From the NCBI GenBank assembly GCA_028824125.1, contig JAPPES010000036.1:15476-79475 (forward strand): a stretch of DNA of 64,000 bases, written 5' to 3'. Made by a program: the position numbers and the translations under genes. The notes beneath the pieces were generated by a model. That model saw only the letters and a program-made list of their open reading frames with translations, was not told the origin of the DNA and did no database searches. Shown one piece after another: positions 10,880-43,905 of the stretch (position 1 is its first letter; every line of letters begins with the position of its first letter). This DNA comes from Candidatus Poribacteria bacterium (GTDB taxonomy: Bacteria; Poribacteria; WGA-4E; WGA-3G).

Positions 10880-10912
10880 TATGCAATTTTGCACCACAAA
10901 ATCGCGTCTATA
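10880..10912 (+). promoter_or_regulatory. candidate ECF-type promoter (TGCAA-N16-CGCGTCTA) upstream of the sigma-fusion gene
   Basis: A CGCGTC element lies 40 nt upstream of the ATG. The same element is conserved upstream of all four paralogous sigma-fusion genes. Confidence 0.4.
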
Positions 10913-10947
10913 CTAATCAAAAGACCAATTTGCTATTGAGGTATCAG

Positions 10948-13920
10948 ATGATATACGATGATGCGAACTTGATTCAACGAACCTTAGAAGGGGATCAACA
11001 AGCGTTTGCAGAACTTGTGGAAAAATACCAAAAACAGGTCCACGCATTAGCGTGGCAGAAGATCGGTGATTTTCACATTGCCCAAGAGATTACACAGGAT
11101 ACGTTCCTTACGGCATATCACAAGCTCACGACGCTCAAAGACCCTAATCGTTTTGCGGGATGGCTCTATGTGATTGCGAACCGCAAATGCATCGCGTGGC
11201 ACCGAAAGAAGTCCCCACAACCACAATCTTTAGAAGCGATGAACCCGATTGAATTAGAGGAGGTATATTATTCAGTGTATATGACTCAAAAACGCGAAGA
11301 AGCAGCAAATCAAAAACGACGTGAAGTGGTGCAGAAGTTGCTCAGTAAGCTGCAAGAGAGTGAACGCACAGTTGTCAATCTGTATTACATCGCAGAAATG
11401 ACATGTGAAGATATTGGCAAATTTTTAGGCGTATCTCCAAATACCGTCCGCAGCCGACTTCACCGCGCACGCAACCGTTTAAGGAAGGAAGAAACGATGA
11501 TTAAGGAAAACTTAAGTAGCTTCCAACTGCCGACACAATTGACGGAAAACATCATGAAAGAGATTTCACACATCAACCCTGCTGCACCGTCCGGTAGCAA
11601 ACCTTTACTACCATGGGCAATTGCTGCTTCCACGTTAGCAGTTGTGTTGCTTATGCTCGGTTTTGGAAACCACCAGTACCTAACGCGTTTTCAGAAACCT
11701 TATAGTTTTGACGCTGCCACTGAAATGACGGTTGACATCATTGACGCACCAATAGTCGTGAACCTTGAGTCCAAACCTGATGTGCAGACGCAAATCGGAA
11801 GTTTTATTGCATTAGACGAACTCAATAATTCTGAACAACAACCTAATAATGCTTCTGCAGCGATTGCAGAAGCACAAGGAGACGAAATAGTGGAAGATTA
11901 CACAAAATGGGAATTGCCGAAAGAAGCGAAAGCGCGTTTTGGCAAAGGTGGGATTAATGTGCTTCGATTTTCACCAGATGGTAGACAACTCGCGGTAGGT
12001 AGTAGTATAGGTACTTGGCTTTATGATGTGAAAACGGGGAAAGAACTGTCTATGTTCCCCGGTAAATGCAAATTCATCACATTCTCTCCAGATGGCCGCT
12101 TCCTTGCGAATATTGTTACCGGGAAGGTAACCCAGTTGTGGGAAGTAGCTACCGGGCAGAAAGTATTATTCAATGATAGTTTACCGAAAGCCTCAGTATT
12201 GCGATTCTCTGAAGACGGTAAAACACTTTATGCTTTGAGTGCCGAGGGAGATTCAATCAGTCAGTTAGATGTTAAAACAGGAAAAGGGAGTGTAAAGCAT
12301 ACTGAAGAGCAAACAAGCGGGGAGTCTTTAGTTCTTTTTGCGCTCACACATGATAAATTTGCAGTCGGAACAGAAACTAAGATTGAATTGTGGGACACAA
12401 CGACCGGCAAAATACTGTCTACACTCAAGGGAAATATGTCTCTTTTAACCTTGGAATTTTCACCTGATGGCACACGTGTCGCGAGTGCAGGTAAGAGTAG
12501 CGATAACACAGTCACATTACAATTATGGGATACCGAAAGTAAGGAGTCAACTCTCCTCCATAAACACAAAAGGTGGGTCAACGCGTTAGCATTCTCTCCT
12601 GACGGAAAAATGCTGGCAAGCGGCGGGACTGATAAGACAGTGCAGTTGTGGGATTCCGCCACCGGTGAGCCTCTTACCACTTTCACAGGTCATAGCAGCG
12701 GCATCAATGCTTTAACATTTTCACCAGATAATCGCACACTTGCCAGTGGGAGTGCAGATGGCACAGTCCGGTTTTGGAATATTAAGACGGGAGATCCATT
12801 ACCCACCCGCATCTACCAACACACAATGGAGGTGGAAGCAGTGACTTTCTTTAAAGATAACGCCACGCTTGCAAGTGTCGCGTATGATGGGGTCGTTAGC
12901 TTGTGGGATGTGAAAACATTACAAAAAATCGATACCAAAACATTACGAAAAACTGATTTCTACCATAAAGAAGATCAAGATAGAGAATACCAAGATTGGT
13001 TATCGGCTGCAGCGTTTTCACCTGATGGGACAAAGATCGTCAGTGCTGGTGTAAAAGGTAACAGACTCTTCTCAGATTACGCTATGGCTGAGTATACAGA
13101 GGATCAATTGGTTCGTCTGAGTGATGTTAGGACAGGCCATGAATTGCAGACTTTAGCTAAGGAAGGAGGTTCCTCATTCGTGACTTTTTCACCTGATGGA
13201 AAAACGGTGGCATTCGCCAATTTTGGTAAGATTCGCGTATGGAATACGGAGACAGATGAGACTTTTGATATATCTCTCGATATGTTATCTCTCGATATAT
13301 CTCACTTAGATCAAAATGATATTGACAAGTTATCTGACCAACGTAAGTCAGAAATCAGTGCACTTAAGCCTGGTATCAGTGCTTTGGTTTTTTCACCGGA
13401 CGGTGAAAAACTTATCAGTGGAACCCATGGCGGAAAGGCCCAGATGTGGGATGTGAAAACGGGAGTTCCGTTAGCACGCCTTTTTGAAGGGAAGGAACCG
13501 ATAGTAGAAGGCATTCCCCCTAATATTCATATCACCTATCAGGAACATATTCGAACATTGGCATTCTCACCAAATGGGAATTTGATTGCTATAGCAAATA
13601 ACAAACGAACCCATTTGCTACGTTTGTTGGCAGGCCATAAACATTCCCTTCTTAAGGAAATTCCGCATAGTGCCTATGCGTTAGTGTTTTCACCAAATAA
13701 TACTTTGCTTGTTATTGGACTTAGAAACGGTGCAATTGAGCTATGGGATGTTGAAACTTGGGACAAACTTACCACACTCGATGGGCATTCAGGAGCAGTA
13801 GGAACGTTGGTGTTCTCACCCGATGGCAAAACACTCGTGAGTACAGGGCAAGATGGCACAATTCTTTTGTGGGATTGGGATGAGGTTCTAAAGGGTTCCA
13901 ACCGAGAGAAAAATAAGTAA
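10948..13920 (+). CDS. ECF sigma factor domain - single TM helix - WD40 beta-propeller fusion protein
   Basis: The N-terminus has sigma-70 region 2 (HALAWQKIGDFHIAQEITQDTFL...FAGWLYVIANRKC) and region 4 (ERTVVNLYYIAEMTCEDIGKFLGVSPNTVRSRLHRARNRL). A hydrophobic helix (LLPWAIAASTLAVVLLMLGF) follows. After that come many WD repeats (LWDTTTGK, LWDSATGE, LWDVKT...). The ATG at 10948 was chosen by alignment to the paralog N-termini (MIYDDANLIQRTLEGD), with GAGGT as RBS. Confidence 0.8.
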   Translation: MIYDDANLIQRTLEGDQQAFAELVEKYQKQVHALAWQKIGDFHIAQEITQDTFLTAYHKLTTLKDPNRFAGWLYVIANRKCIAWHRKKSPQPQSLEAMNPIELEEVYYSVYMTQKREEAANQKRREVVQKLLSKLQESERTVVNLYYIAEMTCEDIGKFLGVSPNTVRSRLHRARNRLRKEETMIKENLSSFQLPTQLTENIMKEISHINPAAPSGSKPLLPWAIAASTLAVVLLMLGFGNHQYLTRFQKPYSFDAATEMTVDIIDAPIVVNLESKPDVQTQIGSFIALDELNNSEQQPNNASAAIAEAQGDEIVEDYTKWELPKEAKARFGKGGINVLRFSPDGRQLAVGSSIGTWLYDVKTGKELSMFPGKCKFITFSPDGRFLANIVTGKVTQLWEVATGQKVLFNDSLPKASVLRFSEDGKTLYALSAEGDSISQLDVKTGKGSVKHTEEQTSGESLVLFALTHDKFAVGTETKIELWDTTTGKILSTLKGNMSLLTLEFSPDGTRVASAGKSSDNTVTLQLWDTESKESTLLHKHKRWVNALAFSPDGKMLASGGTDKTVQLWDSATGEPLTTFTGHSSGINALTFSPDNRTLASGSADGTVRFWNIKTGDPLPTRIYQHTMEVEAVTFFKDNATLASVAYDGVVSLWDVKTLQKIDTKTLRKTDFYHKEDQDREYQDWLSAAAFSPDGTKIVSAGVKGNRLFSDYAMAEYTEDQLVRLSDVRTGHELQTLAKEGGSSFVTFSPDGKTVAFANFGKIRVWNTETDETFDISLDMLSLDISHLDQNDIDKLSDQRKSEISALKPGISALVFSPDGEKLISGTHGGKAQMWDVKTGVPLARLFEGKEPIVEGIPPNIHITYQEHIRTLAFSPNGNLIAIANNKRTHLLRLLAGHKHSLLKEIPHSAYALVFSPNNTLLVIGLRNGAIELWDVETWDKLTTLDGHSGAVGTLVFSPDGKTLVSTGQDGTILLWDWDEVLKGSNREKNK

Positions 13921-14280
13921 ATACGTGAGTTCGGAAAAAGATTTAGGGTTATAGAGAAAGTCATGCGTCCTTGATTGCTGGCGTTGTGTGAATGGTTTTA
14001 TTGACGGGATACAAGAAGCGTGTTATAATAGTCCTGCAAACAATTAGTGTTCAACACGTGTTTGTACTTGCATTATCCTGAAGGCAGGTTCGCCTCCTGT
14101 CATCGGCGGGTGGCCGGGGATAATACACGTCCTGCGTGGAGACGAAAACCTTGCACTTAAAATTATTGTAAACCCGCTCAAAATTAGCGGAGGCTTTGAA
14201 AATTCAATCTGTTTTTGGAATAATGGGTAAAGGTTAAGGCAGAAAAAGTAAAATATAACACCAATAGGAGATATATTTCA

Positions 14281-16473
14281 ATGCCACACTCAAAATTCTC
14301 TTTCTTTTTATTCATTTTCCTATTAATCACAGTGGTTACTTTCATTGCACAACTTGAGGCAGAAGAGGTGAGCAACGAACAGGAGCGCGCGATAACACAA
14401 GAATTCATCACAGCGGCACAAAAATTCGTAGAACTTGGTGAAATAGATAAAGCAATAGAAATCTACGAACGAATTGTGAAGGGTACCCCCGATGATTTAG
14501 AATCTCGCGCACAACTCGCAACGCTTTACACCCGCACAAAACAATATGAAAAAGCTGCGCAAACATGGGAAAAATTGCTTGAAACTGACCCAGAAAACAC
14601 AAAATATCAAGATGGTCTTGTTTATAGTTTACGAGCTGTTGGTGAAGTGGACGAGGCATTTGAAATTGCGCAGGCATACATCCAAACGGAGCCAGAAGTG
14701 GGTGCCCATTATGCACGCCTCGCAAGGTTGTATGAGGCAGAAGGTAAGGTAGGTGAGGCCATTACCAACTACGAAAAAGCAATTGAATTGGCACCCGGTG
14801 ATGTACAAGTACAAACTTATCTCAAACTCGCAAACCATTATTTTTTAAATGAGGACATAGCGGCTGCTGAAAAAATATTGAAGAATGCCATGCTATACAC
14901 ACGATCAGAATTCGATAGGCGAGATATCGAACTGCAATTGATCAAACTCTATCTTTATCAGGGGAATTTGGGAGAAGTATTACAAAAGGTTGAAGCTGAA
15001 GGCATCCCACTCTCTTATGAAATATCAAATGCGAAAGAACGTGCACAGCACTTTCTCAACACTGGTGAATTGGAAAAATCTGCGGCTTATTTTAAGATAG
15101 CACTTGTAACAGCCAAGAGTTCTTATGATCGAGGTAGTATTTCTAATGAATTGCTCAAGGTCTACTTAGAACAAGACAGGACAGACTTGGCATTAGAACT
15201 CTACGAAGCAGAAGCATCAGAGCAGTCCAGATCAACACTTGTCGCAACAACTTTCGGCCCATTTGATATTAACGTCAAATTCGGTAGTGATGACGCACGC
15301 GAAATCCTGGTTAATACCTATAAAAATCGAGGGGAACTTGATGTGTTAAGAACGCTTTTAGAAGATAAACTTGAGAAAAACGCTGATAATCCTGCTGTTA
15401 TTGAAATGCTTGCTGAAATTTATTGGAATGTCAACGATTATCAGAAAGCTGCTGAAGCGTATCACGTCCTTAGCAAAGCAGAGTCGAACAATATCCGCAG
15501 CTTTTACTATGCAGCTGCTGCCTTCCAGAAAAGTAACCAGCCTGATATGGCAAAAGAGTTACTGAACCGAGCCGAAACCGCGCTTACATCTGTCAACTAT
15601 AGACAGGACGGATCATTCCTCGGCGCACTTGCTACCATCTGTCTTAAGAATGAAATGTATGAGCCGGCTATAAAACTCGCTGGTAACGCTATCATTGAAG
15701 CACAGAATTTCGTTGATCCGGATATAGAATTCATTTTGAATATCCGTAAAGATATCATTGAAGCACAGAATTCCGTTGATCCGGATATAGAACGCGTTGG
15801 TAACGCTATCATTGAAACACAGAATTCCGGTAACACTTTGGTTGTGAATGCATGTTTGAGGACCATTTGTAAAAGCCGCCTCGGCCTAGCTAAATACTAC
15901 AGTCAAAACAACATACCCGATAAAGCAATGGAACAGATGCAACAAACCGGCATTATTCATGAAAATGCGTGGTTGGTTCTCGGACCATTTGACAATACCA
16001 CAGGAATCGGATATGATACGGAGTACATTTTTGAAAACATGACACAGATTGATCTCACCGCAAAGTATGGGGGTGTCAACAAACAGATAAGTTGGAAAAA
16101 GTTTACGGATGCTGCTTTTGACGGTTTTATCGATCTCGGTAGGAATATCAATTGGCGTGTTGCTTATGCATGGGCAACTGTAACCTCACCTGATAAACGA
16201 GAAGTGTTTTTTAGATTTGGTAGTGATGACCAATCAAAAATATGGCTAAATGGCACAGAGGTATTCGCGGATACCAACGCTCAAACTGCAATACTTGACA
16301 GACACGCTATTCCTGTAACCCTCAAGGCAGGTAAAAACACTATCCTCGTCAAGGTTTGCAATGAGGAAATAGATTGGGGATTCTATCTACGGGTTACGGA
16401 TGCTGATGGAAAACCTTTCAAAGACTTGAAAATTAACAATATGCATGATAAATTGAAGAGTATGCATGAATAA
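14281..16473 (+). CDS. secreted TPR-repeat protein with a C-terminal ~180 aa beta-sandwich-like domain
   Basis: A signal peptide (MPHSKFSFFLFIFLLITVVTFIAQLEA) is followed by TPR-like helices. The C-terminal module is LGPFDN...WRVAYAWATVTSPDKREVFFRFGSDDQSKIWLNGTEVF...LVKVCNEEIDWGFYLRVTDADGKPF. Confidence 0.65.
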   Translation: MPHSKFSFFLFIFLLITVVTFIAQLEAEEVSNEQERAITQEFITAAQKFVELGEIDKAIEIYERIVKGTPDDLESRAQLATLYTRTKQYEKAAQTWEKLLETDPENTKYQDGLVYSLRAVGEVDEAFEIAQAYIQTEPEVGAHYARLARLYEAEGKVGEAITNYEKAIELAPGDVQVQTYLKLANHYFLNEDIAAAEKILKNAMLYTRSEFDRRDIELQLIKLYLYQGNLGEVLQKVEAEGIPLSYEISNAKERAQHFLNTGELEKSAAYFKIALVTAKSSYDRGSISNELLKVYLEQDRTDLALELYEAEASEQSRSTLVATTFGPFDINVKFGSDDAREILVNTYKNRGELDVLRTLLEDKLEKNADNPAVIEMLAEIYWNVNDYQKAAEAYHVLSKAESNNIRSFYYAAAAFQKSNQPDMAKELLNRAETALTSVNYRQDGSFLGALATICLKNEMYEPAIKLAGNAIIEAQNFVDPDIEFILNIRKDIIEAQNSVDPDIERVGNAIIETQNSGNTLVVNACLRTICKSRLGLAKYYSQNNIPDKAMEQMQQTGIIHENAWLVLGPFDNTTGIGYDTEYIFENMTQIDLTAKYGGVNKQISWKKFTDAAFDGFIDLGRNINWRVAYAWATVTSPDKREVFFRFGSDDQSKIWLNGTEVFADTNAQTAILDRHAIPVTLKAGKNTILVKVCNEEIDWGFYLRVTDADGKPFKDLKINNMHDKLKSMHE
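15683..15835 (+). repeat. in-frame tandem repeat (about 3 copies of ~48 nt) inside the TPR gene
   Basis: The unit atcattgaagcacagaattccgttgatccggatatagaa is repeated. It encodes AIIEAQNxVDPDIE. Confidence 0.7.
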
Positions 16474-16519
16474 TTCTAAAGTCTATCATAGTTATAACCT
16501 TAGGAGGGGATATATTTCA

Positions 16520-20317: not shown

Positions 20318-20326
20318 GGGGTGTGC

Positions 20327-20499
20327 ATAATTATTTTGCACATCAACACAGACAGGGACAGGCGCCATGTGCCGCTTGATTCATAGAAATGCTGTTTAAT
20401 CGCAATTCATTGCGCCTCTTTGAACTTGTGGACGGCACACGGCGTGTGCCTACTACCTTTAAGCGCATATTTAAATCGGAATTATTTATGCACACCCCT
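20327..20499. repeat. MITE-like element between convergent genes
   Basis: 19 bp terminal inverted repeats (gggtgtgcataattatttt / aattatttatgcacacccc) flank a segment containing the ggcacacggcgtgtgcc palindrome, the same palindrome as at 10482. The right arm overlaps the stop codon of the minus-strand sigma-fusion gene. Confidence 0.55.
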
Positions 20500-23400: not shown

Positions 23401-24428
23401 GGAATTGGATTTCCACTAATCTTATAATTTCTATGACGTTCAATGATGAAATCACCAGTTACGGAGGTAACAGCATTATCGTAGTGCTTTATCTTAGCGA
23501 TAATCGTGTCTAAGTCAAGCGAAGCGGCGTCATCGGTTTGTTTGCCAGCTCCATTGTTCTTACCCGATGCATCGGGACTTTCAAGCTGCGTTCGTACATC
23601 CGGTTTTACATTAAGATTCTCCACAATAGGTACATCAATGAGTTCAACTACCATCTCAGCTTGTGCATCCAAACTATACGGTTTCTGGAAACGTACCAAG
23701 TATTGACTACTGATACCAAGCATCAATACAATCAATATTAAACTTGATGCCCCAATGACCCATGGTACCAAGGGTTTACCACCAGAAGGCGCGGCAGGTT
23801 TAAGTCGTGCGACTTCTCGCATAATATTATCGGTTAGGTTCGGTGAGATTTGGTAATTCTCTAAAGCTTCTCTTATCATTGTTTCCTCCTTTTGTAAACG
23901 TTGTCTGGCACGGTAAAGCCGATTCTTAATCGCACTTACCGATACACCTAAAAACTTGCTTATCTCTTCATACGTCATTCCCCCGAGGTAGTAGAGCGTG
24001 ATGACCGTGCGGTCACTCTCTTGTAGTTTTGCAAGCAACTTTTTAACGACTTCACGCTGTGCTTCTACTGATGCTCGTTCGTTTTCCGCAATGACATAAT
24101 TGGAATAAGTTGCCTTTTCCAACTCTGCATCGCAGGTGTGTTCCAAGGACTGTGTTCGCATACGTTTCTGACGAAGCCATGCCTTGCAACGGTTCGACGC
24201 TATCACATAGAGCCAACTTGCAAAAGACTGTGATTCCTTCAGCGTTGATAGTTTCTGATGCGCTTTCAGGAATGTTTCCTGTGTGATGTCCTCAGCAATG
24301 TGGAAATCTCCAATTTTCCGCCACGCTAACGCGTGAACCGACTTCTGATATTTTCTTACAAGCGCGGAGAACGCAGTATCATCACCATCAAGGATACGTT
24401 GGATGAGTTCAACATCAGCATTTTTCAT
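20499..24428 (-). CDS. ECF sigma factor domain - TM helix - ~400 aa middle domain - double WD40 propeller fusion protein (1309 aa)
   Basis: The N-terminus is MKNADVELIQRILDGDDTAF, with sigma region 2 (HALAWRKIGDFHIAEDITQETFL) and region 4 (DRTVITLYYLGGMTYEEISKFLGVSVSAIKNRLYRARQRL). The TM helix is LVPWVIGASSLILIVLMLGI. The C-terminus carries about 14 WD repeats. Confidence 0.8.
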   Translation of the reverse strand: MKNADVELIQRILDGDDTAFSALVRKYQKSVHALAWRKIGDFHIAEDITQETFLKAHQKLSTLKESQSFASWLYVIASNRCKAWLRQKRMRTQSLEHTCDAELEKATYSNYVIAENERASVEAQREVVKKLLAKLQESDRTVITLYYLGGMTYEEISKFLGVSVSAIKNRLYRARQRLQKEETMIREALENYQISPNLTDNIMREVARLKPAAPSGGKPLVPWVIGASSLILIVLMLGISSQYLVRFQKPYSLDAQAEMVVELIDVPIVENLNVKPDVRTQLESPDASGKNNGAGKQTDDAASLDLDTIIAKIKHYDNAVTSVTGDFIIERHRNYKISGNPIPPGNLSIERNIEPKIKKNEYKLTFEGEKVRVDGGAGGFGLIQYWDGKQHWEVSSPDNLLFKAEIKLNKEITVLKKIQQAFKQVGIEIADDARIVKGELQNSYRVIEKDKTYFVLFVGETMVEVYKHNVGYAVRPHWAIMPVDQDPRLWLTFPNNVSDNTYLSQPLWQLLEKHESEIIGSEVLDGEKTTVIRLTKPARTIGDHEISPQHYKLWISHDKGFRLVKSEREYIEPDDPLGWSPFKAGVTYINTRKIEYHEYLPDVWFPKRIEKSIVPKESSEKQNGENVLFKDVFLTKQCQLNTDVSKLLRLDLSADTLVLDYSVGHSRTVGDLETQPNFQTQPASSHVQNKNNVAVQEVSDKDAPDSQQWHLPEGAKVRLGKGGINKIAYSPNGKQLAVASSIGVWIYDSDSGKELDLLTEHTDWVQSIAFNPNGNILASGSDDGSIRLWDTRTSTHLRTMTDNMSLITNVVFSGDGKMLASASRNNTIRLWATQTGKSHTTLEGHTDRIFSIWLSGDGTTLASASRDNSIRLWDTQTGEVRKTFDLEHTEEILEMAFSPDGKTLATWAWGWDTPIRLWNVQTGKLQKTLKGQERDVVYEMAFSPDGKTLASAMNEGTVRLWDAQTGERRRILIGHTHDVLNVVFSPDGKTLATGSYDTTIRVWDTQTGKRQKTLKGYMNEVLSVVFSPDGKMLVNSIDDDIIRVWDAQTGALHRTLKDQRESGITCLAFSFDNKTLASSGYARAIRLWDAQTGKPRKTLTGHKDTVTSLAFSPDGNTLASASWDKTLHLYDVQTGELRETFSGHTDWIMSVAFSPDGKTLASGSKDTTVRLWDVQTSELLKTFTGHTGVVFSVAFSPDGKTLTSGSHDGTIRVWDVQTAELLKTVEHLNEVLSVAFSPDGKILASGNADNTIYLYNTQTSPIQQILVLVGHTDKVTNVAFSPDGKTLVSGSRDDTLLLWEITLDATQLK

Positions 24429-24469
24429 TGGTCACCTCTGGAAATGAAAAGTTCATCATTTCACATCAA

Positions 24470-24520
24470 CATATAGTGACGCGACTTGAAGCGAAAAAGT
24501 CTCAAGTTTTTTCAAAAAAG
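24470..24520 (-). promoter_or_regulatory. candidate ECF-type promoter element (CGCGTCACTAT) upstream of 20499..24428
   Basis: The rc sequence aagtCGCGTCACtatatg lies about 45 nt upstream of the ATG. The motif is shared with the other three paralog upstream regions. Confidence 0.4.
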
Positions 24521-24624
24521 AGGAAAGAGGGGATAATGTTCAATTATTATACCATTATCCTCTCTTTTTTCATATTTGTATAAATACTACGTTGTTAGTG
24601 TCTTCAACATTTAGGATAGAGTGT

Positions 24625-24762
24625 TATAGTGAAATCTGTAATTATTTACACACGACGGTAGGTTCGGTTTCCTAACCGAACCTGTGTTTATCCAGCCTCA
24701 TAGATGCGGTTAGAAACCGCATCTACCAGGGAGTGTGCATATATTTTTAGATACCACTATAA
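24625..24762. repeat. MITE family A copy (terminal inverted repeat TATAGTGAAATC ... GATACCACTATA)
   Basis: Terminal inverted repeats flank internal hairpins (ggtaggttcggtttcctaaccgaacc and gcggttagaaaccgc). Paralogous copies are at 47121..47248, 50795..50908 and 52745..52889. Confidence 0.65.
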
Positions 24763-24812
24763 AGGAGATAGGAAGGGATTGGTTGCATTGGATACCTATT
24801 AGATAAGGTAGA

Positions 24813-27800
24813 TTATTGTTCAAGATTATAATGAAGCATACCGTTGTTTTGTGTACCTACGTATAACGTGCTCCCATCAACCACAAGAGAAGTTACACCA
24901 TCCGGAATCTCTGAAATAATCTTTTCCCATACACCGCTTTCCAAACGATAGATACCTGTCCCTTTGGTAACACCATAAACCGTTGTGCCATCAGCAGCCA
25001 AGCGTTCCATAATGAGATTCGTTCCCTCTGCATCGGTGATTGCACGCCATTTTATTCCATTATCTGACACAGTTACACCAGCGTCTGTTGCTACATACAC
25101 CGTGGAACCCGCAAACATAATCTCTTTGAAAGTTTCAACAGGAAATGGCAGCGCTGAGGTAAGATCGATCCAACTCCGATTATTTCCTCTATCATAAGAT
25201 ACAACGAGATGACCGTCCCGTTTGCCGACGTAGACGGTGTCCCCTGAAACAGCAAGTTTGAGCTCTTTTTCTATTATTTTCCGAGACAATCTAACGGTTT
25301 CTTCTTGTCCGGTGTCGTACCATTCAGTATCACCAGGTTCCCATCGGAGGAGTTTAAAGTTGTATTCTAAATAAAACGTATCGCCACTGACTGCAAACGG
25401 TCCCTTTAACCCAGATTCGTAAAGAGGGTCTTGGTATAATCGGCGAAAGTTTTTGTGTATGGAACCCATTTGAGCCAACTGTTTAAAGAACTGGTTTGCA
25501 CCTACAGAACTTTCTTGCAACTGTTCAAAGTAGGGCTTATCTGATCCTTTAGCAGGTTGTCGATAATGCAGTAAGTTGTATAGTGACGATGATCTAAAGA
25601 CTGGCATGCCTTTAATTGGTACTAACGTATTGCGATCCTCAGAAATCCGATACAGACTCATGAGGGCATCACTGGTAGGTCCTCGACTTTTCGCATATAG
25701 CACGCCATCAGACTCTGCTATCCGAGTAAAAGAAGGTATATGTTCTTGAATTTGTATTTCTGGGTTCACCACACGCCAAGATTGTCCCTTATCACTGGAT
25801 TTAAATACCCATTTACTTCCCATACTTCCAGAGAACATTGCATAGATGTAGTTAGATATGTTTTGTTCTTTATTCGTCTTGACACAGATTAGGTCGATAA
25901 TACTGCTTTCCAACCCTGTATAAAACCTTGTCCACGATAAACCTCCATCAATTGAGCGATATATTCCGGATTCCCCTTGTAAATATAATGTGTTTTCGTT
26001 TAACACTACTGCATTGTGAACACTATAAGGCATCAGTGAAATATCGCTGGTTTTTTCAAGTGTCCATGTGTTACCGTTGTCAATAGAGCGAATCACCGCA
26101 GCACCACGCCACCCTATTAATAATAATGTGTTTTTCACTGCGACCAGAGTTGCATGAGGTTCTTTGTCAAACGGTTCAGGCCCCATAATGGGCAATGCGT
26201 TTGTTGGTGTAATATTCGTCCATGACTGTCCTTTATCAGTTGATCGAAAAAGCCACCAGGTCCGCTCCTGCGGCCCAACATTTTTCCAATCCCATTCTCC
26301 CAATACATAAAGATGGTTTTCAGTTCCCACAAACGAAACGATTTTTTTAGCTTCATTTACCGGAAATTGCAAACGTTGCCAACTACCACCGTCAAGGTGA
26401 TATAGACCTGTGCTTGTTGCAGCAAATAGCGTGTTTTGAATTACCTTCAATGTGCTCACTTCCCCTGTCAATCCCTCGCCAACAACATTCCAGGTTTTTC
26501 CAATATTCTCAGATACGAAAATCTCATGTTCAAGGGCAAGATAAAACCTATCGTCCAACACCTCAAATCCGTTAACCCATCCTGCTGGACATTTACCAAA
26601 TGAAACCCAGGTTTCTCCATCATCCAATGAACCATATAGTTCATTGGAGTATTGACGACCATCAAGAGTGAGAACAATATAGATCATATCGTTTGACTTC
26701 ACCATAGAGACTGCATCATACAGAGTATCTGGTAGTAGTGAACTAATATCACATACAGGTTGCCATTCAGTTCCATCAACTGGTAGTTTATACAGTATAT
26801 CTTCCCAGCCTTCATCATATACAATATAGATTTCTCCCTCGGGTGTAGGGAGTAACGTCATCAATTCTCCTGAACCTACTGGACTGTTTTCCTGAATCCA
26901 CTGCTGTTTCGGGGCAGAAACGCCTTTTTCATCCGACTGCACCGCAGCCAGTAATACCTCATCCGGTTTCTGACCATCATTATTGTTTTTGCCAAGTGTA
27001 TTTGCACTCCCAAGTTGATTTTGGATATCTGGTTCTACCTCAAGATTTTGTACAATAGGAGCATTAATAAGCTCAACTTTCATCTCAGTTTGCGCATCCA
27101 AACTATAGGGTTGTTGAAAACGGACTAAGTATTGACTCCCTATACCAAGCATTAACACAATCAAAACTACACTGGATGCAGCGGCTATCCACGGCACAAG
27201 CGGTTTGCTGACGGAAGGCGTAGGTTTAAGTCGTGCGACTTCTCGCATAATGTTATCAGTTAGGTTCGGTGAAATTTGGAAATGGTCGAGTGCTTCTCTA
27301 ATCATCGTTTCCTCCTTTTGTAAACGTTGTCTGGCACGTCTCAGACGACTTTTTATTGTGCTTCCCGATACGCCTAAAAATCGGCTAATCTCCTCAACCG
27401 TCATCTCACCGAGATAATGGAGCGTCATTACCGTACGTTCGCTTTCTTTTAATTTCGCGAGCAGCGTTTTGACCACTTCACGTTGTGTCTCCGCAGCAGT
27501 TGTTGCGCGATCTGCTGTGACATGTTGTGAATAAGCATCTTTCGGTGTCATCGTTGTTTCTGCGTCCTCCAACGGTTGTGTCCGTATCCGTTTTTTGCGG
27601 ATCCATGTGTTGCATAGGTTTGTCGTAATCACGTAGAGCCACCCAGAAAACTGATTCGGATCTTTCAGCGTATGGAGTCTCTGATACACTTTCAGGAAAG
27701 TGTCTTGGGTAATGTCCTCGGCGATGTGGAAATCCCCAACTTTTCGCCATGCCAGCGCGTGAACCGGCTTCTGATACTTTTTTACCAACTCAGTGAAAGC

Positions 27801-27854
27801 GGTTTCATCGTCTGCAAGAATTCGGTGAATAAGTGCAACATCGTCTTTTTTCAT
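24813..27854 (-). CDS. ECF sigma factor domain - TM helix - BNR/Asp-box repeat beta-propeller fusion protein (1013 aa)
   Basis: Sigma regions 2 and 4 are present (HALAWRKVGDFHIAEDITQDTFL; ERTVMTLHYLGEMTVEEISRFLGVSGSTIKSRLRRARQRL). The TM helix is LVPWIAAASSVVLIVLMLGI. The C-terminus carries multiple SxDxGxTW motifs (SLDDGETW, STDKGQSW, SIDNGNTW, SIDGGLSW, SSDKGQSW). Confidence 0.8.
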   Translation of the reverse strand: MKKDDVALIHRILADDETAFTELVKKYQKPVHALAWRKVGDFHIAEDITQDTFLKVYQRLHTLKDPNQFSGWLYVITTNLCNTWIRKKRIRTQPLEDAETTMTPKDAYSQHVTADRATTAAETQREVVKTLLAKLKESERTVMTLHYLGEMTVEEISRFLGVSGSTIKSRLRRARQRLQKEETMIREALDHFQISPNLTDNIMREVARLKPTPSVSKPLVPWIAAASSVVLIVLMLGIGSQYLVRFQQPYSLDAQTEMKVELINAPIVQNLEVEPDIQNQLGSANTLGKNNNDGQKPDEVLLAAVQSDEKGVSAPKQQWIQENSPVGSGELMTLLPTPEGEIYIVYDEGWEDILYKLPVDGTEWQPVCDISSLLPDTLYDAVSMVKSNDMIYIVLTLDGRQYSNELYGSLDDGETWVSFGKCPAGWVNGFEVLDDRFYLALEHEIFVSENIGKTWNVVGEGLTGEVSTLKVIQNTLFAATSTGLYHLDGGSWQRLQFPVNEAKKIVSFVGTENHLYVLGEWDWKNVGPQERTWWLFRSTDKGQSWTNITPTNALPIMGPEPFDKEPHATLVAVKNTLLLIGWRGAAVIRSIDNGNTWTLEKTSDISLMPYSVHNAVVLNENTLYLQGESGIYRSIDGGLSWTRFYTGLESSIIDLICVKTNKEQNISNYIYAMFSGSMGSKWVFKSSDKGQSWRVVNPEIQIQEHIPSFTRIAESDGVLYAKSRGPTSDALMSLYRISEDRNTLVPIKGMPVFRSSSLYNLLHYRQPAKGSDKPYFEQLQESSVGANQFFKQLAQMGSIHKNFRRLYQDPLYESGLKGPFAVSGDTFYLEYNFKLLRWEPGDTEWYDTGQEETVRLSRKIIEKELKLAVSGDTVYVGKRDGHLVVSYDRGNNRSWIDLTSALPFPVETFKEIMFAGSTVYVATDAGVTVSDNGIKWRAITDAEGTNLIMERLAADGTTVYGVTKGTGIYRLESGVWEKIISEIPDGVTSLVVDGSTLYVGTQNNGMLHYNLEQ

Positions 27855-27894
27855 CAGGCGTCTCCAAAAAGTGATTACTTGATTAATAACATAT

Positions 27895-27945
27895 CAACCT
27901 ATAGTGACGCAAGTTAGGGACAAAACGGTTGCTTAATTCTGCAAA
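27895..27945 (-). promoter_or_regulatory. candidate ECF-type promoter element upstream of 24813..27854
   Basis: The rc sequence tgcagaattaaGCAACCgttttgtccctaacttGCGTCACtatagg is nearly identical to the element at 31050..31100. Confidence 0.45.
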
Positions 27946-27974
27946 AAAGAGAATTTGGAAGGGAAGAGAAAAAA

Positions 27975-28012
27975 AGAAAAAGGGCGGTATTTAGCACCGC
28001 CCAGGCAAAATA
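27975..28012 (-). terminator. Rho-independent terminator after the 28025..31012 gene
   Basis: On the minus strand, the hairpin gggcggtgctaaataccgccc is followed by ttttttcttttttt. Confidence 0.7.
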
Positions 28013-28024
28013 TAAAAACGAAAT

Positions 28025-31012
28025 TTATTCTTTTTCAAGATTATAATGAAGCATACCGTTGTTTTCTGTGCCTACGTACAAAGTGCTCCCATCAACAGCA
28101 AGAGAAGTTACGCTATCAGGTATCTCTGAGACAATCTGCTCCCAAGTGCCGCTTTCCAAGCGATGGATACCTGTCTTCTCGGTAACGCCATAAACCGTTG
28201 TGCCGTCAATAGCCAAATGTTCCATGATGAGGTGTGATCCTACTGTGTCTGTTATAGCATGCCAATGTTTTCCATTATCTGATGTAGCAACACCTACGTC
28301 TGTTGCTACATACACCGTGGAACCAGCAAACAAGATCTCTTTGAAATTTTTAAGGGGTGTGGGAAACATAAAGTCCACGGGAATATCTTTCCAATTATTT
28401 CCGGCATCAAGTGATTGAACAAACCGCCCATCCCGTTTGCCAACGTAGACAGTGTTGCCTGATACCGCAAGTTTGAGGTCTTTCCGCGCTATGTCCGAAG
28501 CCAACTCAACAGTTTCTTCCACACCGGTGTCGGACCACTCAGTGTCACCGTGTTTCCATTTAAAGAGTTTAAAGTTGTACTCCATATAGAACGTGTCGCC
28601 ACTAACAGAAAAGGGCCCGCGGAGTCCAGCTTGGATAAGTTGAGGTAGCCATCTTAGATTGCCTACCTCAAACTGTTTGAAAAATTGGATTGCCCCTGAC
28701 GAATTTACTTGCAACTGTGCAAGAGTTAGTTTATCTTGTAATTCGAATGGCAATACTCTTTTTTGAGATAATAGTTGATACAACTCACTGGAGTTAAAAA
28801 TAGGTATACTTTCAATCGGCTTTAGTGTATTATCACTTTCAGATACACTATAGATAAGTGTTTTTTCATCAGAATCATCTATACCTTTGGCATGAAGAAC
28901 ACTACCAGATTTAACTATATGGGTGATGTGCGGTGGCTCGTTACCATGGGGTGTTGTTATTGGTTTTCCCATTTGAACGAAATCCCAAGACTTGCCTCTG
29001 TCAATAGTTTTTACAATTTTGCCATCAACTATTCCGTAGAGGGCTGCTGAAGTGTTTAGTCTTTTATCGAATTCTTGATAGAGAATTAGGCTATCCGCTT
29101 GATTTCCTCGGCTGAAATTCACTATGTGCCATGACTTGCCACTATCAGTGGAACGATGGAGACCATCGTCACTACCGACATAAATAGTATTTGTGTTAAT
29201 TACCACAGCAGGATTTTTACTATCCATTTGCGGTGAGGTTCCTGCTAATTGTGGCGGCATCCATGTATTTCCGCCATTGGTGGAGCGTACCATACCTTTT
29301 TCCATTACTAAGAGAGTATCACCGGCAGCAATCAGTTTAGCCCCAGCGATGAAATCTTTTACTGCCCAAGCGTTTGTTGGAGTTATATCTTCCCACGAAT
29401 TCCCAAGGTCACTTGATCGAAATATTCCCCAACTACGCTGCAGTCCACGGGACACTTTTCGAGGGTCAAGAACATCCCAGCTGAATCCAGCTAAAACATA
29501 AAACTTATCTTCAGTTGCTGCAACTGATTGAATTCCTTCAACAGACATTGGAAATTCCAAGCGTTTCCAACCGTCATCGCTGTAACGGTAAAGACCATTA
29601 CTTGTTCCAGCAAAAAGGGTGTTTTGGATATTGACTAAAGCATTAATTCCTGTCAATCCATCATTAATACTCTTCCAAGTTTTGCCTATATCTTCCGAAC
29701 GAAAAATATCGTTTTCAAAAGCCATGTAAAACGCTTGTTCTGTTAGAATTAATTCTATGGAATTCCAATATTTTTCGCTATCCCATGAGTAAAGTAAGTT
29801 CCATGATTTGCCATCATCTTTTGAAGCGAAAAGTTCACTTGATTGTGTATAATACAGTGTATCTTCCCACTTCACGATAAGGAGTTGGACTCCTATGCTG
29901 GAATGTGGCAATGTCCAAATGTCAAAGATGTGTTGCCACGTTTCCGTTTTTGCAGGCAATTTGTATATCTCTCCCTTAGTATAAGTATAGAGATCGCCTT
30001 CGGGTGTTGCAAGGAAACTATTCACAGTGCTCCCTGTAAGAGGAGTAGACTGAATCCACTCCTGTTTGGGAACAGAAACATCTTCTCCTTCCGCCTGTGC
30101 GGTGGCTAATAATATTTCATCGGGTTTCTGTCCATTGTTATCGCTTTCACCAAGTACGTTTGAATTCCCAAGTTCACGACGTACATCCGGTTTCACTTCA
30201 AGATTTTGCACAATAGGGGCGTCAACGAGTTCAACGGTCATTTCAGTCTGTGCATCTAAACTATAAGGTTGCTGAAAACGCGCGAAGTATTTGCTGCCTA
30301 ACCCAAGCATTAACACAATCAAAACAACACTGGATGCAGCGGCTATCCATGGCACAAGCGGTTTGCTGACGGAAGGCGTAGGTTTAAGTCGTGCGATTTC
30401 CCGCATGATGTTATCAGTCAAGTTAGGTGAAATTTGGAAATGGTCGAGTGCCTCTCTAATCATTGTTTCCTCCTTTTGTAAGCGGTGCCGCGCACGTTGT
30501 AGTCGGCTCTTAATTGTTCCTGCAGAAACCCCTAAAAACTTGCTAATCTCTTCGACTGTCATCTCACCGAGGTAGTGGAGTGTCATCACCGTGCGTTCGC
30601 TCTCCTTCAACTTTGCGAGGAGTCTCTTAACCACTTCGCGTTGTGCTTCAACAGCGGTTTGAGCACGTTGTTCTACGACATGTCGGGAATAAGCATCTCT
30701 TTGTCCCATAGTTGTCTCTGCGTCCTCCAACGGTTGTGTCCGTATCCGTTTTTTGCGGAGCCAAGCGTAGCATCGGCGCGTCGCAATCACATAGAGCCAC
30801 CCAGAAAACTGGTTTGGATCTTTCAGGGTGTGAAGTCTCTGATATACTTTCAGGAAGGTATCCTGTGTAATCTCTTCGGCGATGTGGAAATCCCCAACTT
30901 TTCGCCAAGCCAGCGCGTGAACCGGCTTTTGATATTTTGTCACAAGTTCAACGAAAGCGTTTTCATCACCAGCAAGAATCTGTTGGATCAGTTCAACATC
31001 GTTGTTTTTCAT
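28025..31012 (-). CDS. ECF sigma factor domain - TM helix - BNR/Asp-box repeat beta-propeller fusion protein (995 aa)
   Basis: This is a paralog of 24813..27854 with the same N-terminal sigma and TM architecture. Its BNR motifs include SKDDGKSW, SEDIGKTW, SSDLGNSW, STNGGNTW, STDSGKSW and TIDRGKSW. Confidence 0.8.
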   Translation of the reverse strand: MKNNDVELIQQILAGDENAFVELVTKYQKPVHALAWRKVGDFHIAEEITQDTFLKVYQRLHTLKDPNQFSGWLYVIATRRCYAWLRKKRIRTQPLEDAETTMGQRDAYSRHVVEQRAQTAVEAQREVVKRLLAKLKESERTVMTLHYLGEMTVEEISKFLGVSAGTIKSRLQRARHRLQKEETMIREALDHFQISPNLTDNIMREIARLKPTPSVSKPLVPWIAAASSVVLIVLMLGLGSKYFARFQQPYSLDAQTEMTVELVDAPIVQNLEVKPDVRRELGNSNVLGESDNNGQKPDEILLATAQAEGEDVSVPKQEWIQSTPLTGSTVNSFLATPEGDLYTYTKGEIYKLPAKTETWQHIFDIWTLPHSSIGVQLLIVKWEDTLYYTQSSELFASKDDGKSWNLLYSWDSEKYWNSIELILTEQAFYMAFENDIFRSEDIGKTWKSINDGLTGINALVNIQNTLFAGTSNGLYRYSDDGWKRLEFPMSVEGIQSVAATEDKFYVLAGFSWDVLDPRKVSRGLQRSWGIFRSSDLGNSWEDITPTNAWAVKDFIAGAKLIAAGDTLLVMEKGMVRSTNGGNTWMPPQLAGTSPQMDSKNPAVVINTNTIYVGSDDGLHRSTDSGKSWHIVNFSRGNQADSLILYQEFDKRLNTSAALYGIVDGKIVKTIDRGKSWDFVQMGKPITTPHGNEPPHITHIVKSGSVLHAKGIDDSDEKTLIYSVSESDNTLKPIESIPIFNSSELYQLLSQKRVLPFELQDKLTLAQLQVNSSGAIQFFKQFEVGNLRWLPQLIQAGLRGPFSVSGDTFYMEYNFKLFKWKHGDTEWSDTGVEETVELASDIARKDLKLAVSGNTVYVGKRDGRFVQSLDAGNNWKDIPVDFMFPTPLKNFKEILFAGSTVYVATDVGVATSDNGKHWHAITDTVGSHLIMEHLAIDGTTVYGVTEKTGIHRLESGTWEQIVSEIPDSVTSLAVDGSTLYVGTENNGMLHYNLEKE

Positions 31013-31049
31013 CAGGTGCCTCCCGAAAGGATAGGTTCAATTTGTCATA

Positions 31050-31100
31050 CTGAACCCTTGTGACGCGACTTAGGAGGAAAACGGTTGCATAATTCTGCAT
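31050..31100 (-). promoter_or_regulatory. candidate ECF-type promoter element upstream of 28025..31012
   Basis: The rc sequence tgcagaattatGCAACCgttttcctcctaagtCGCGTCACaagg is conserved with the other sigma-fusion upstream regions. Confidence 0.45.
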
Positions 31101-31675
31101 GTTTATGAATTGGATGGTTGGAAACAGTGAATACTATTTTACCAAATCAGGTGGGTTTGTCAAGATGTGAGGGTTGAAAGGCAGGGTTATTTAGTTTTAA
31201 AAACCCTCAGTTATCAAGTTAACTGCAAGTAAGGGTTTTGAAGCATAATATTTTATCTTATCCGCTATGATGGCGTGGCAGAAAGTTTTCTGTGTCAAAA
31301 GTGCGTCCGGGGAATGCCATACGCGCATTCATACCGTTGATTTGGTTGTGATGACTTTCCCACTCACATCAAAGTTCTTGAGGATCTCAGTTGAGATCGG
31401 TATTTCGTTGGTTTTGCCACTGACACCTTGTTGTGTCCGTGTAACCTCTAACTCATGAGAAACAACGGAGAGTAAATGGCTTATTGTCGCATCACATTTT
31501 CGGGACAAGGTGATGTCTTGTGTGTACAACCGAGTGCTTGGACCAGGTCGGGTTGAGATCGTGCCCACTTTGCAGTGGAGGTATATCTTTATGTCCGGAC
31601 ATAAAACCAATGATGACAAGTCCGAGGATTGAGTGCAACGGGTGTCGTTTTCCTTATGTCCTGATTATACAATCT

Positions 31676-40377: not shown

Positions 40378-40485
40378 TAAAATTCTCCTGTTATTGTCCT
40401 TATCATATTGTTGTCTTCTATAGAAAATGTATAGGTATTTTCGATTTTACTATAAATGGAATTATATAGCACTCTCCCAAAAAAG

Positions 40486-43307: not shown

Positions 43308-43315
43308 AGAGATTA

Positions 43316-43846: not shown

Positions 43847-43905
43847 GGAGGGAACTCCGATTCCCGACTATTAATGGTTTCGTCGCGATTCGGAGATCGC
43901 TCCTA
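43847..43905. repeat. family C repeat copy
   Basis: The segment ggagggaactccgattcccgac ... gtcgcgattcggagatcgctcctac matches 10596..10640. Confidence 0.5.

Follow-up and report, generated by a model that had tools for sequence, protein, structure and literature searches.

The window analysed here, a stretch of 64,000 nucleotides from a sponge-derived Candidatus Poribacteria MAG (metagenome scaffold), carries 4 genes (A to D) that each encode one self-contained protein composed of an N-terminal ECF sigma domain, a linker, a transmembrane (TM) helix, a juxtamembrane segment, a spacer and a large beta-propeller. Each gene is preceded by an ECF-type promoter, and the features of the locus are as follows:

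10881..10913, + strand: ECF-type promoter of A, ATGCAATT-N15-GCGTC, with the -10 element GCGTC 43 nt upstream of ATG 10948
10948..13920, + strand: gene A, 990 aa; ECF sigma domain (10948-11490), linker (11491-11604), TM helix (11605-11670), juxtamembrane segment (11671-11805) and some 13-14 WD40 blades
20499..24428, - strand: gene B, 1309 aa; ECF sigma domain (23886-24428), linker (23772-23885), TM helix (23706-23771), juxtamembrane segment (23571-23705), unknown domain of about 415 aa (22284-23531) and 14 WD40 blades (20502-22283)
24473..24505, - strand: ECF-type promoter of B, TTGAGACT-N16-GCGTC
24813..27854, - strand: gene C, 1013 aa; ECF sigma domain (27312-27854), linker (27198-27311), TM helix (27132-27197), juxtamembrane segment (26997-27131) and an Asp-box tandem propeller
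27901..27934, - strand: ECF-type promoter of C, AAGCAACC-N16-GCGTC
27982..28002, - strand: intrinsic terminator between D and C, an 8-bp stem with 6 GC pairs followed by a T run
28025..31012, - strand: gene D, 995 aa; ECF sigma domain (30470-31012), linker (30356-30469), TM helix (30290-30355), juxtamembrane segment (30155-30289) and a GH74-like Asp-box tandem propeller
31057..31090, - strand: ECF-type promoter of D, ATGCAACC-N16-GCGTC

The 4 open reading frames are those already described by a previous sequence-only reading of this DNA, with gene A encoding 990 aa from ATG 10948, a start that we prefer over TTG 10930 of the mechanical ORF for its GAGG ribosome-binding site and its match to the family N-terminus. 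All of them read through without internal stops or frameshifts, confirming that the sigma and propeller parts are not split into separate genes, and an identity of 56-82% over the first 300 aa bears out that they are paralogs. The protein encoded by gene D is 100% identical to a deposited NCBI protein (P0269, [quoted passage not shown]). Given the intrinsic terminator between them, D and C are separate transcription units.

Anatomy of the four proteins

The sigma domain comprises aa 1-181 of each protein with both sigma2 and sigma4 complete, as the sequence-only reading had claimed. The profile searches that it had proposed matched A-D to TIGR02937, the model of the ECF superfamily, with 95-111 bits (cutoff 42.9). 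Motifs of regions 2 and 4 are preserved in all 4 proteins, which have no sigma3 or sigma1 matches and thus belong to the ECF sigma factors (group 4) of the sigma-70 family. For C and D, the Pfam families Sigma70_r2 (around aa 23-89), Sigma70_r4_2 (around aa 127-178) and Sigma70_r4 also score above cutoff, while the assignment of A and B is based on NCBIfam because the sigma Pfam families are outside the best 25 Pfam matches listed for them. Scores for narrower models stay below cutoff, both for the SigW equivalogs (NCBIfam PRK09641 / TIGR02948; 104-110 bits versus 209 and 93-100 versus 243) and for the Rhodopirellula/Verrucomicrobium ECF family TIGR02989 (73-89 bits versus 124.55). The closest PDB sequence match is nevertheless SigW (5wuq_A, 1e-24, around 30% identity). 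Across family copies, C81 in sigma2 is invariant or nearly so. In sigma4, the sole cysteine that recurs, at position 153, is seen in about one copy out of four and, in the window, in A alone.

Sigma4 is followed by a linker of 38 aa and then by one hydrophobic peak per protein at aa ~220-240 (Kyte-Doolittle 19-residue mean 2.1-2.35), with no second peak above 1.5 on the same scale in any of A-D, in agreement with the single TM helix postulated between sigma domain and propeller. The juxtamembrane segment beyond it (~45 aa) is conserved and common to all sensor types, is predicted to be disordered in both the N-terminal and the full-length AlphaFold models, and is separated from the propeller by a variable low-complexity spacer. 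With a conservation of 0.80, the linker equals sigma2 (0.80) and approaches sigma4 (0.84); values are lower for the TM helix plus juxtamembrane segment (0.73), for the loop that joins sigma2 to sigma4 (0.59) and for the spacer (0.50). The conservation of the linker at the level of the sigma domains indicates that it is not a passive spacer. A search with the linker-TM-juxtamembrane module gave 279 matches among 1.84 billion representatives; most of the 150 listed lie at residues ~182-290, i.e., fused after a sigma domain, and the others, in which the module begins closer to the N-terminus, resemble truncated gene calls.

Pfam searches with aa 182-290 returned nothing even at E<=10 (no zf-HC2, no FecR, no canonical anti-sigma domain), FecR and other anti-sigma families are absent from the listed full-length matches of A-D, and the linker sequences have no Cys/His motif of the HxxxCxxC zinc finger type. 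The earlier statement that the linker is too short for a canonical anti-sigma domain is thus correct for class I domains, which have ~80-90 aa in three to four helices compared to 38 aa without profile match here, but it may not extend to short elements of class II type. In the AlphaFold model of aa 1-300, the linker forms 2 helices (181-190 and 198-209, pLDDT 84-90), and the best global superposition is with CnrH of the CnrH:CnrY complex (4cxf_A, TM 0.74, rmsd 4.7 Å), compared to an rmsd of ~27 Å for RNA-polymerase-bound ECF sigma factors. AlphaFold is prone to compact ECF models whatever the regulation. The modelling of the linker that had been suggested earlier hence gave 2 confident helices in the N-terminal model, but the linker pLDDT drops to ~30-39 in the full-length model of D, so that its docking depends on the model. 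Linker conservation, the 2 predicted helices and the CnrH:CnrY-like arrangement together suggest that the linker may be a minimal, built-in class-II-like anti-sigma element. The previous conclusion that these genes are not a sigma/anti-sigma pair holds insofar as no separate anti-sigma gene is found near A-D (neighbors encode TPR proteins, RtcB and a solute-binding protein), but each gene may comprise a sigma factor plus a minimal anti-sigma in one chain.

Each protein ends in a tandem beta-propeller region of ~650-700 aa. Because the sigma domain is in the cytoplasm and only one helix crosses the membrane, this region must be located on the outer side of the cytoplasmic membrane. The assignment of 2 WD40 and 2 BNR/Asp-box propellers, with about 14 blades in the 1309-aa copy, is supported by Pfam and motif counts: A and B are WD40 beta-propellers (PF00400 with 230 and 443 bits, respectively, cutoff 27) with about 13 blades in A and 14 FSPDG-type blades at a 42-aa period (spacing 41-45 aa) in B, while C and D carry 7 and 8 Asp-box motifs (S-x-D-x-G-x-x-W), respectively, and qualify as Asp-box tandem propellers by matches to Sortilin-Vps10 (40-52 bits, cutoff 33) and PSII_BNR (34.7, cutoff 27). 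Two details of the sensor anatomy nevertheless required revision. B has an additional domain of ~415 aa between membrane and WD40 repeats (aa ~300-715) for which we found no Pfam or PDB match, and the "BNR" part of C and D is, as modelled, a tandem GH74-like double propeller. The AlphaFold model of the D sensor (aa 320-995, blockwise pLDDT mostly 70-96) matches GH74 tandem propellers best among PDB structures in Foldseek (E ~1e-19 to 1e-20 over ~830-880 columns including gaps), with just 12-14% identity, and it also resembles the periplasmic glycan-sensor domains of the Bacteroides hybrid two-component systems BT4663 and BT4673. The NCBIfam glycosylhydrolase model F510_1955 scores 79-92 versus a cutoff of 175.

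Promoters and distribution of the family

All named matches of these proteins come from Candidatus Poribacteria, where the family has at least 570 genomic copies that often form tandem arrays. We read 98 complete copies of 785-1099 aa in other Poribacteria genomes, comprising 59 with Asp-box, 37 with WD40 and 2 with Ig-like domain sensors, and the tree of the N-terminal module implies ~15 changes of sensor type. Judged by sequence, the genes of the window thus belong to a large, so far undescribed, phylum-wide poribacterial family, and we propose that it expanded through duplication and sensor-module exchange. This is well in line with the lineage-specific family with swapped sensors that the sequence-only reading had suggested. 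Many short "relatives" of 300-500 aa in the protein database include fragments and one decayed copy.

The family promoter consists of an xCAACC-like -35 element, a spacing of N15-16 and the -10 element GCGTC, and it is found ~53 nt upstream of nearly every copy, with the -35/-10 pair at fixed distance in 106 of 144 upstream regions. Conversely, for 96 of the 110 matches of the corresponding regular expression in 700 kb, a family gene follows 20-200 nt downstream, and another 2 matches precede truncated copies. No promoter target besides the family genes was found in the window, and elsewhere there is one candidate (L031) outside the family. The -35 class GAGACT/GAAACT of the B promoter also precedes B-like genes in other genomes. 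More generally, the -35 class covaries with positions 165, 169 and 172 in the recognition helix of sigma4, with phylogeny as a confounder, since the members of a class largely fall into a single clade. The near-universal presence of an ECF-type promoter with a class-specific -35 element argues for working, self-regulating sigma factors. Since -35 hexamers and recognition-helix residues both differ by class, the paralogs are probably parallel, partly insulated channels.

Proposed regulation and its alternatives

We favor as the probable explanation that each protein is a one-chain transmembrane sigma factor that is held by its linker, released proteolytically upon ligand binding, feeds back on its own promoter and works in parallel to its paralogs. 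At rest, the sigma domain would be kept at the membrane by its own linker in a closed, RNA-polymerase-incompetent form, with the linker serving as the minimal class-II-like anti-sigma element. The trigger would be ligand binding, with propellers of the GH74-like type recognizing a glycan and WD40 propellers a protein or other ligand. Similar to RseA, RsiW and IutY, cleavage would then affect the conserved juxtamembrane segment and subsequently the membrane helix, and the freed sigma would join core polymerase and initiate transcription from ECF-type promoters, among them its own ~53 nt upstream of the gene, creating positive feedback. We infer proteolytic release by analogy, with the activation of IutY by Prc and RseP as precedent (PMC8999054); release by a site-2 protease appears plausible, and no gene for such a protease (M50) is present in the window.

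An activity of the tethered sigma without cleavage, as implied by the ToxR/CadC analogy of the sequence-only reading, would have the ligand shift conformation or oligomeric state and recruit RNA polymerase to membrane-proximal DNA. The short, conserved linker of 38 aa could pass such a conformational signal and the cluster has no linked protease gene, but a sigma factor must enter the holoenzyme and travel through promoter escape, which is sterically demanding on this tether. Moreover, IutY as the sole experimentally studied fused transmembrane sigma requires proteolysis (PMC8999054), and the sigma state is modelled as closed rather than polymerase-competent, which makes this mode of action quite unlikely. 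Control by a partner encoded elsewhere seems unlikely as well. Such a partner could be a Ser/Thr kinase, a separate anti-sigma factor or a periplasmic protein shared by the paralogs, and the propeller would be its docking platform and not the primary sensor. WD40 propellers are typical protein-binding scaffolds, a juxtamembrane segment conserved over all sensor types would fit a common partner, and some ECF57 members with WD40 repeats have been suggested to be controlled by protein interaction (PMC8999054), yet the self-contained module has been duplicated as a whole, and no conserved neighbor gene is found within ±4 kb in 76 loci except for further family copies.

The propellers could also have no signalling role and be membrane-anchored enzymes or adhesins (a GH74-like glycosidase or a "eukaryote-like" WD40 protein), with the sigma domain as a leftover of duplication and insertion, a scenario put forward for the extensions in Planctomycetes. 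Pinto & da Fonseca described how duplicated sigma2-sigma4 units pick up unrelated sequence downstream (PMC7671368), the sensor of C and D resembles GH74 enzymes, and poribacterial WD40 proteins are usually counted as host-interaction repeats (PMC8163846). We nevertheless regard this scenario as very unlikely, given that everything from the sigma domain through linker and TM helix to the juxtamembrane segment shows strong conservation throughout the phylum, that a matching ECF promoter lies ahead of nearly every copy, that only two main sensor types recur and are both conserved, unlike in random capture, and that decayed copies are recognizable as such. Even less credit is due to the idea that the N-terminal domain is a sigma-like decoy binding an anti-sigma factor rather than DNA or polymerase: such receiver modules exist, and PhyR (2lfw) is among the weak structural matches, but the high scores on true ECF models, the SigW match at 1e-24, the intact region 2 and region 4 motifs and the conserved, cognate-looking promoters make it highly improbable. 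Finally, an artefact of assembly or gene calling that joined separate sigma and propeller genes might be suspected for a metagenome scaffold with many short database relatives, though the latter include fragments and a decayed copy. It is effectively refuted by the 98 complete copies from dozens of independent assemblies, closed chromosomes included, and by the deposited protein identical to D, in addition to the 4 uninterrupted frames of the window.

The one-chain model with proteolytic release is testable, with a promoter motif and domain boundaries for truncations defined. In its most far-reaching version, each poribacterial genome would encode a set of a dozen or so single-protein sigma switches, each with its own -35 specificity, whose propellers read glycans of the sponge matrix or host proteins, in the extreme form with the sigma acting while still membrane-tethered, without cleavage. 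We consider this version unlikely. If true, a substantial share of the symbionts' "eukaryote-like" WD40 repertoire would be sensor hardware and not host-manipulating effectors. As a general caution, not all poribacterial WD40 proteins should be counted as eukaryote-like host-interaction factors. The family is among the most expanded regulators in Poribacteria, and through its paralog-specific -35 elements it provides a natural set of related, possibly orthogonal sigma/promoter pairs.

Comparison with known systems

The concept of ECF sigma regulation is unchanged by this family, because WD40 extensions in ECF57 and fused transmembrane types in IutY and ECF48/52/53 have already been published (PMC8999054, PMC7826278, PMC7671368, PMC8567305). 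Instead, it adds an uncultivated phylum of sponge symbionts to Planctomycetes, Proteobacteria and Actinobacteria as groups that possess ECF sigma factors with a built-in transmembrane sensor. The ECF57 proteins of Planctomycetes are ECF sigma factors with WD40 extensions (PMC8999054, PMC7826278) and occur with 5.3 paralogs per planctomycetal genome (PMC7826278); planctomycete ECF-WD40 proteins fractionate with membranes (PMC8567305), and their sigma core has been duplicated with differing extensions (PMC7671368). The proteins described here resemble them by the ECF core, the many paralogs, the lack of a linked anti-sigma gene and, in A and B, the long C-terminal WD40-repeat extension, which is replaced by Asp-box propellers in C and D. 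ECF57 probably corresponds to "ECF01-Gob" as defined by Jogler et al. 2012 and is likely to carry a TM helix as well. Differences to ECF57 are the phylum, the duplication of a conserved linker-TM-juxtamembrane module along with the sigma core, and the GH74-like Asp-box sensor, which is equally common here and not mentioned in the cited ECF57 literature. In addition, ECF57 has 2 conserved cysteines for which a link between sigma2 and sigma4 was proposed (PMC8999054). They do not recur as a conserved pair here, with C81 nearly invariant but Cys153 in only around a quarter of copies.

IutY of Pseudomonas putida (ECF243), a fused sigma/anti-sigma whose truncated form is constitutively active (PMC8999054), shares the N-terminal ECF sigma, the single TM helix and the outer sensing part in one polypeptide and is the mechanistic model that we adopted. 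However, it combines a FecI-like sigma with a FecR-like anti-sigma and receives its signal from a TonB-dependent receptor, while neither FecR nor another known anti-sigma domain was found in the poribacterial proteins, which have a tandem propeller as sensor. Similarly, ECF48, ECF52 and ECF53 of Actinobacteria (e.g., SCO4117) fuse an ECF sigma to an extension that crosses the membrane once or twice and ends in an extracytoplasmic part, a carbohydrate-binding domain in the case of SCO4117, and proteolytic activation was proposed for them (PMC8999054). Their extensions use a zinc-finger (ZAS-type) anti-sigma domain, whereas the 38-aa linker has neither this motif nor a Pfam match. As modelled for aa 1-300, the linker may resemble class II elements of the CnrH-CnrY / NepR type as a short peptide of about two helices that would hold sigma2 and sigma4 closed. 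CnrY differs as a separate protein that is N-terminally cytoplasmic, compared to a candidate element fused in cis after sigma4, and there is no sequence similarity and no docking in the full-length model.

SigW of Bacillus subtilis, the closest solved sigma by sequence and best NCBIfam match, is controlled by stepwise proteolysis of the single-pass anti-sigma RsiW. There, the anti-sigma is encoded separately and has a zinc-binding domain of class I, and the scores of A-D remain far below the equivalog cutoff. Among systems with several paralogs, the SigI/RsgI sets of Clostridium thermocellum carry differing carbohydrate-binding sensors with SigI and the anti-sigma RsgI as separate proteins, and the Bacteroides hybrid two-component systems BT4663 and BT4673 have similarly large extracytoplasmic propeller sensors on single-pass regulators, but with a histidine kinase with AraC as output.

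Four genes and their sensors

Four paralogous genes had been named from the sequence (here A to D), each said to encode an ECF sigma factor fused through one membrane helix to a beta-propeller, and all four are indeed present as single uninterrupted frames:

10948..13920 (+): gene A, 990 aa
20499..24428 (-): gene B, 1309 aa
24813..27854 (-): gene C, 1013 aa
28025..31012 (-): gene D, 995 aa

The ECF sigma domain is found at all four N-termini with 95 to 111 bits against TIGR02937 (cutoff 42.9), and among the matches listed for C and D, Pfam places Sigma70_r2 at about aa 23-89 and Sigma70_r4_2 at about aa 127-178. B. subtilis SigW is the nearest solved protein by sequence to the sigma domain of the family, i.e., of A to D and their relatives across the Poribacteria (E 4e-24), while A to D reach none of the NCBIfam equivalog cutoffs including that of the SigW equivalog and do not qualify as members of TIGR02989. 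In each protein, a single segment is strongly hydrophobic (aa ~220-240; Kyte-Doolittle 19-mer mean 2.1-2.35), which agrees with the single TM helix proposed earlier. A frameshift or artefact joining separate sigma and propeller genes is ruled out by complete copies in other genomes and by a deposited protein from a sponge metagenome bin (94-kb scaffold) that is 100% identical to D and whose annotation goes no further than [quoted passage not shown]. The feature described in the sequence-only reading is therefore real and was described correctly, with refinements regarding an extra domain in B, the sensor fold, and the linker.

The propellers are of the types that had been assigned. The C-termini of A and B match WD40 (PF00400) with 230 and 443 bits and comprise 13 blades in A (motif count) and 14 in B at a 42-aa period. 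C and D carry Asp-box (BNR-type) propellers with 7-8 motifs each and match Sortilin-Vps10, PSII_BNR, and DUF6242 in Pfam. A full-length AlphaFold model of D is confident over aa 320-995, and in the PDB this modeled sensor best matches GH74 tandem seven-bladed propellers (E ~1e-19 to 1e-20), with further matches to the double-propeller sensors that Bacteroides hybrid two-component systems (HTCS) carry in the periplasm. Given this GH74-like fold and the similarity to glycan-sensing HTCS domains, carbohydrates may be the ligands of C/D-type sensors. Gene B additionally encodes a domain of ~415 aa (aa ~300-715; window 22284..23531, minus strand) between the membrane and the WD40 propellers that has neither a Pfam match nor a PDB sequence match and recurs 3' of B-like N-termini in seven other Poribacteria loci at 41-71% identity, plus a short 95% fragment. 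A third sensor type is seen at two other Poribacteria loci (L029 563..3481 and L030 946..3831), where the N-terminal module is followed by a region with a bacterial Ig-like (Big_5) domain and by neither WD40 nor Asp-box repeats.

Promoters, linker, and a possible mode of control

Family genes are preceded by a two-block motif composed of cAGAATTAtG-CAACC and, after 15-16 nt, GCGTCAcTAT, with about 53 nt from GCGTC to the ATG. ECF promoters usually combine an AAC-type -35 with a CGTC-type -10 element, as this motif does. The motif could be placed in 106 of 144 upstream regions, and a loose regular expression gave 110 matches in 700 kb (both strands), 96 of which precede a family gene by 20-200 nt and another two of which precede truncated copies. 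Within the window the motif precedes genes A to D only (for D at 31057..31090), so that no candidate regulon gene beyond these four carries a copy there. These matching promoters are suggestive of A to D being functional, self-regulating sigma factors. The sole candidate non-family target seen lies at another locus (L031 ~2840..3660, plus strand), where a full family-type promoter (TTGGCAACC-N16-GCGTCAC) precedes the gene of a 237-aa protein whose N-terminus carries a membrane helix.

The -10 block of the motif is invariable, and the hexamer classes of the -35 element track the paralog:

GCAACC: C and D types
GAGACT or GAAACT: B type
GTAACC, GCACCC, GCACCA: further classes

Residues 165, 169, and 172 of the sigma4 recognition helix vary with the -35 class, as would be predicted for self-recognition with diverging specificity, and this covariation is suggestive rather than proof because each class is largely one clade. 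Similarly, recognition-helix positions are prominent in the mutual information between -35 class and sigma residues, which we do not take as proof because many clade-specific positions also stand out.

A strong terminator lies between D and C (28002..27982), and each gene is therefore its own transcription unit. Near-consensus sigma-70-type promoters are found just upstream of two of the ECF-type promoters:

31163..31136 (-): upstream of D, TTGACA-16-TAAAAT, extended TG
24573..24546 (-): upstream of B, ATGAAA-16-TATAAT, TG

Judging from these consensus matches, D and B could have dual promoters, one basal and one autoregulated.

The interpretation first given to these genes was right in outline, but its argument that the linker between sigma4 and the TM helix is too short for an anti-sigma domain holds for class I only. 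On the one hand, no canonical anti-sigma domain is detected by Pfam in the linker-TM-juxtamembrane region, even at E<=10. On the other hand, the linker, 38 aa long, is as conserved as the sigma domains, with a mean commonest-residue frequency of 0.80 compared to 0.80 and 0.84 for sigma2 and sigma4; the sigma2-sigma4 loop reaches 0.59 and the spacer ahead of the sensor 0.50. An AlphaFold model of aa 1-300 folds the linker into two helices (181-190 and 198-209; pLDDT 84-90) and superposes best on CnrH as bound to CnrY, a short class II anti-sigma (TM 0.74, rmsd 4.7 A), and next best on SigW:RsiW, compared to an rmsd of ~27 A for polymerase-bound ECF sigmas. This model fits a linker that would act as a built-in minimal inhibitory element, with the serious caveats that AlphaFold is inclined to compact ECF models anyway and that the linker is low-confidence in the full-length model. 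The linker-TM-juxtamembrane module has a very narrow distribution (279 matches among 1.84 billion representatives) and lies at residues ~182-290 in most of the 150 matches listed of these 279. A free-standing version, which would point to a split sigma/anti-sigma ancestor, was considered and rejected: apparent stand-alone matches have an internal Met codon as their start, and sigma2 is missing from the one looked at more closely (P0158), a decayed copy.

Each gene thus combines an intact sigma domain, one TM helix, and a large tandem propeller with a matching promoter in front of it. With a sigma domain that has to reach RNA polymerase and a single TM helix, the proteins would adopt an N-in, C-out topology, and tethering together with the linker would keep the sigma domain inhibited. 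Activation may proceed through successive proteolytic cuts, as it does for RseA, RsiW, and IutY, a fused sigma/anti-sigma protein (PMC8999054, PMC8103513). The juxtamembrane segment, which is conserved whatever the sensor type, is a good candidate for the place of the initial cut or of docking. On balance, we lean toward this overall picture of release by proteolysis, with far greater certainty for the architecture and sigma function than for the proteolysis itself.

Distribution, sensor exchange, and gene neighborhood

With the first 300 aa as query, more than 2,100 proteins were found at E<=1e-20, and a genome scan confirmed at least 570 family copies in species-representative genomes, with all titled records among the matches listed being Poribacteria or uncultured bacterium. 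From 76 fetched loci we read 146 copies, 98 of them complete (59 with Asp-box, 37 with WD40, and 2 with bacterial Ig-like sensors). The copies on one closed Poribacteria chromosome (OZ244889.1) show 90-93% identity over the N-terminal 300 aa. Tandem arrays of two to five copies on the same strand are common, and the best 80 matches alone include at least 9 copies in one MAG. The ~285 N-terminal aa (sigma, linker, TM, and juxtamembrane segment) form one conserved module that is followed by a low-complexity spacer and then the sensor. On a neighbor-joining tree of this module (not bootstrapped), the sensor type changes ~15 times, in line with the swapped sensors proposed from the sequence; sensors and N-terminal modules have therefore repeatedly been recombined, or N-terminal modules have been homogenized between neighbors. 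One tandem-array copy on a 4.83-Mb Poribacteria contig (L077 2840..5406) lacks the sigma2 region, with sigma4, linker, TM, and WD40 still in frame and stop codons upstream of them. Many of the short "relatives" in databases are probably decayed or truncated copies.

Further family copies aside, no conserved gene neighborhood was found within ±4 kb at the 76 loci. Two very large TPR proteins with an 8-nt gene overlap are encoded between A and B, a neighborhood that is not conserved in other loci, and neither gene has a family promoter:

14281..16473 (+): TPR protein, 730 aa
16466..20317 (+): TPR protein, 1283 aa, weak PA14 match

The window also holds a complete-looking Pup-proteasome gene set (43976..50734, minus strand), and a small pup gene could lie in the gap 46860..47278:

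48872..50734 (-): Mpa/ARC-type AAA ATPase
47279..48784 (-): Pup_ligase family
46068..46859 (-): proteasome subunit
45327..46037 (-): proteasome subunit
43976..45337 (-): Pup_ligase family

A small cupin protein (149 aa; window ~36518..36967, minus strand; L078 4046..4495), whose gene adjoins a Uma2 nuclease gene, has a precomputed DMSP_lyase (PF16867) match and could be relevant to sulfur cycling in a marine sponge symbiont. The G+C content is 0.37-0.40 at 40000..44000 and 52000..64000 compared to ~0.43-0.47 elsewhere, and the former stretch contains a Type III restriction-modification methylase gene fragment (42660..43307) and a 462-aa ORF with no Pfam match.

Comparison with known systems

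Regulatory C-terminal extensions are well established in ECF sigma factors and have been reported for 18-19 groups (PMC7826278, PMC8103513). Among them, ECF57 of Planctomycetes has WD40-like repeats and 5.3 copies per genome (PMC8999054, PMC7826278), ECF-WD40 proteins of planctomycetes fractionate with membranes (PMC8567305), and sigma-core duplications in which the extensions differ have been analyzed in the same phylum (PMC7671368). Poribacterial WD40 proteins are normally treated as eukaryote-like repeats (PMC8163846), and the literature searched yielded no paper linking Poribacteria to ECF sigma factors. Fused transmembrane sigma/anti-sigma proteins are already known as IutY (ECF243) and ECF48/52/53, but the family lacks the FecR domain of the IutY type and the zinc finger of the ECF52/53 type; compared with ECF57 by description, it has not retained both of the cysteines reported there. 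The kind of regulator is thus already known and not a new principle, though the GH74-like sensor and the conserved fused module arguably set the family somewhat apart. What it adds is a phylum-wide expansion, modular sensor exchange, and clear promoters with paralog-specific -35 elements, which together make this system easy to test.
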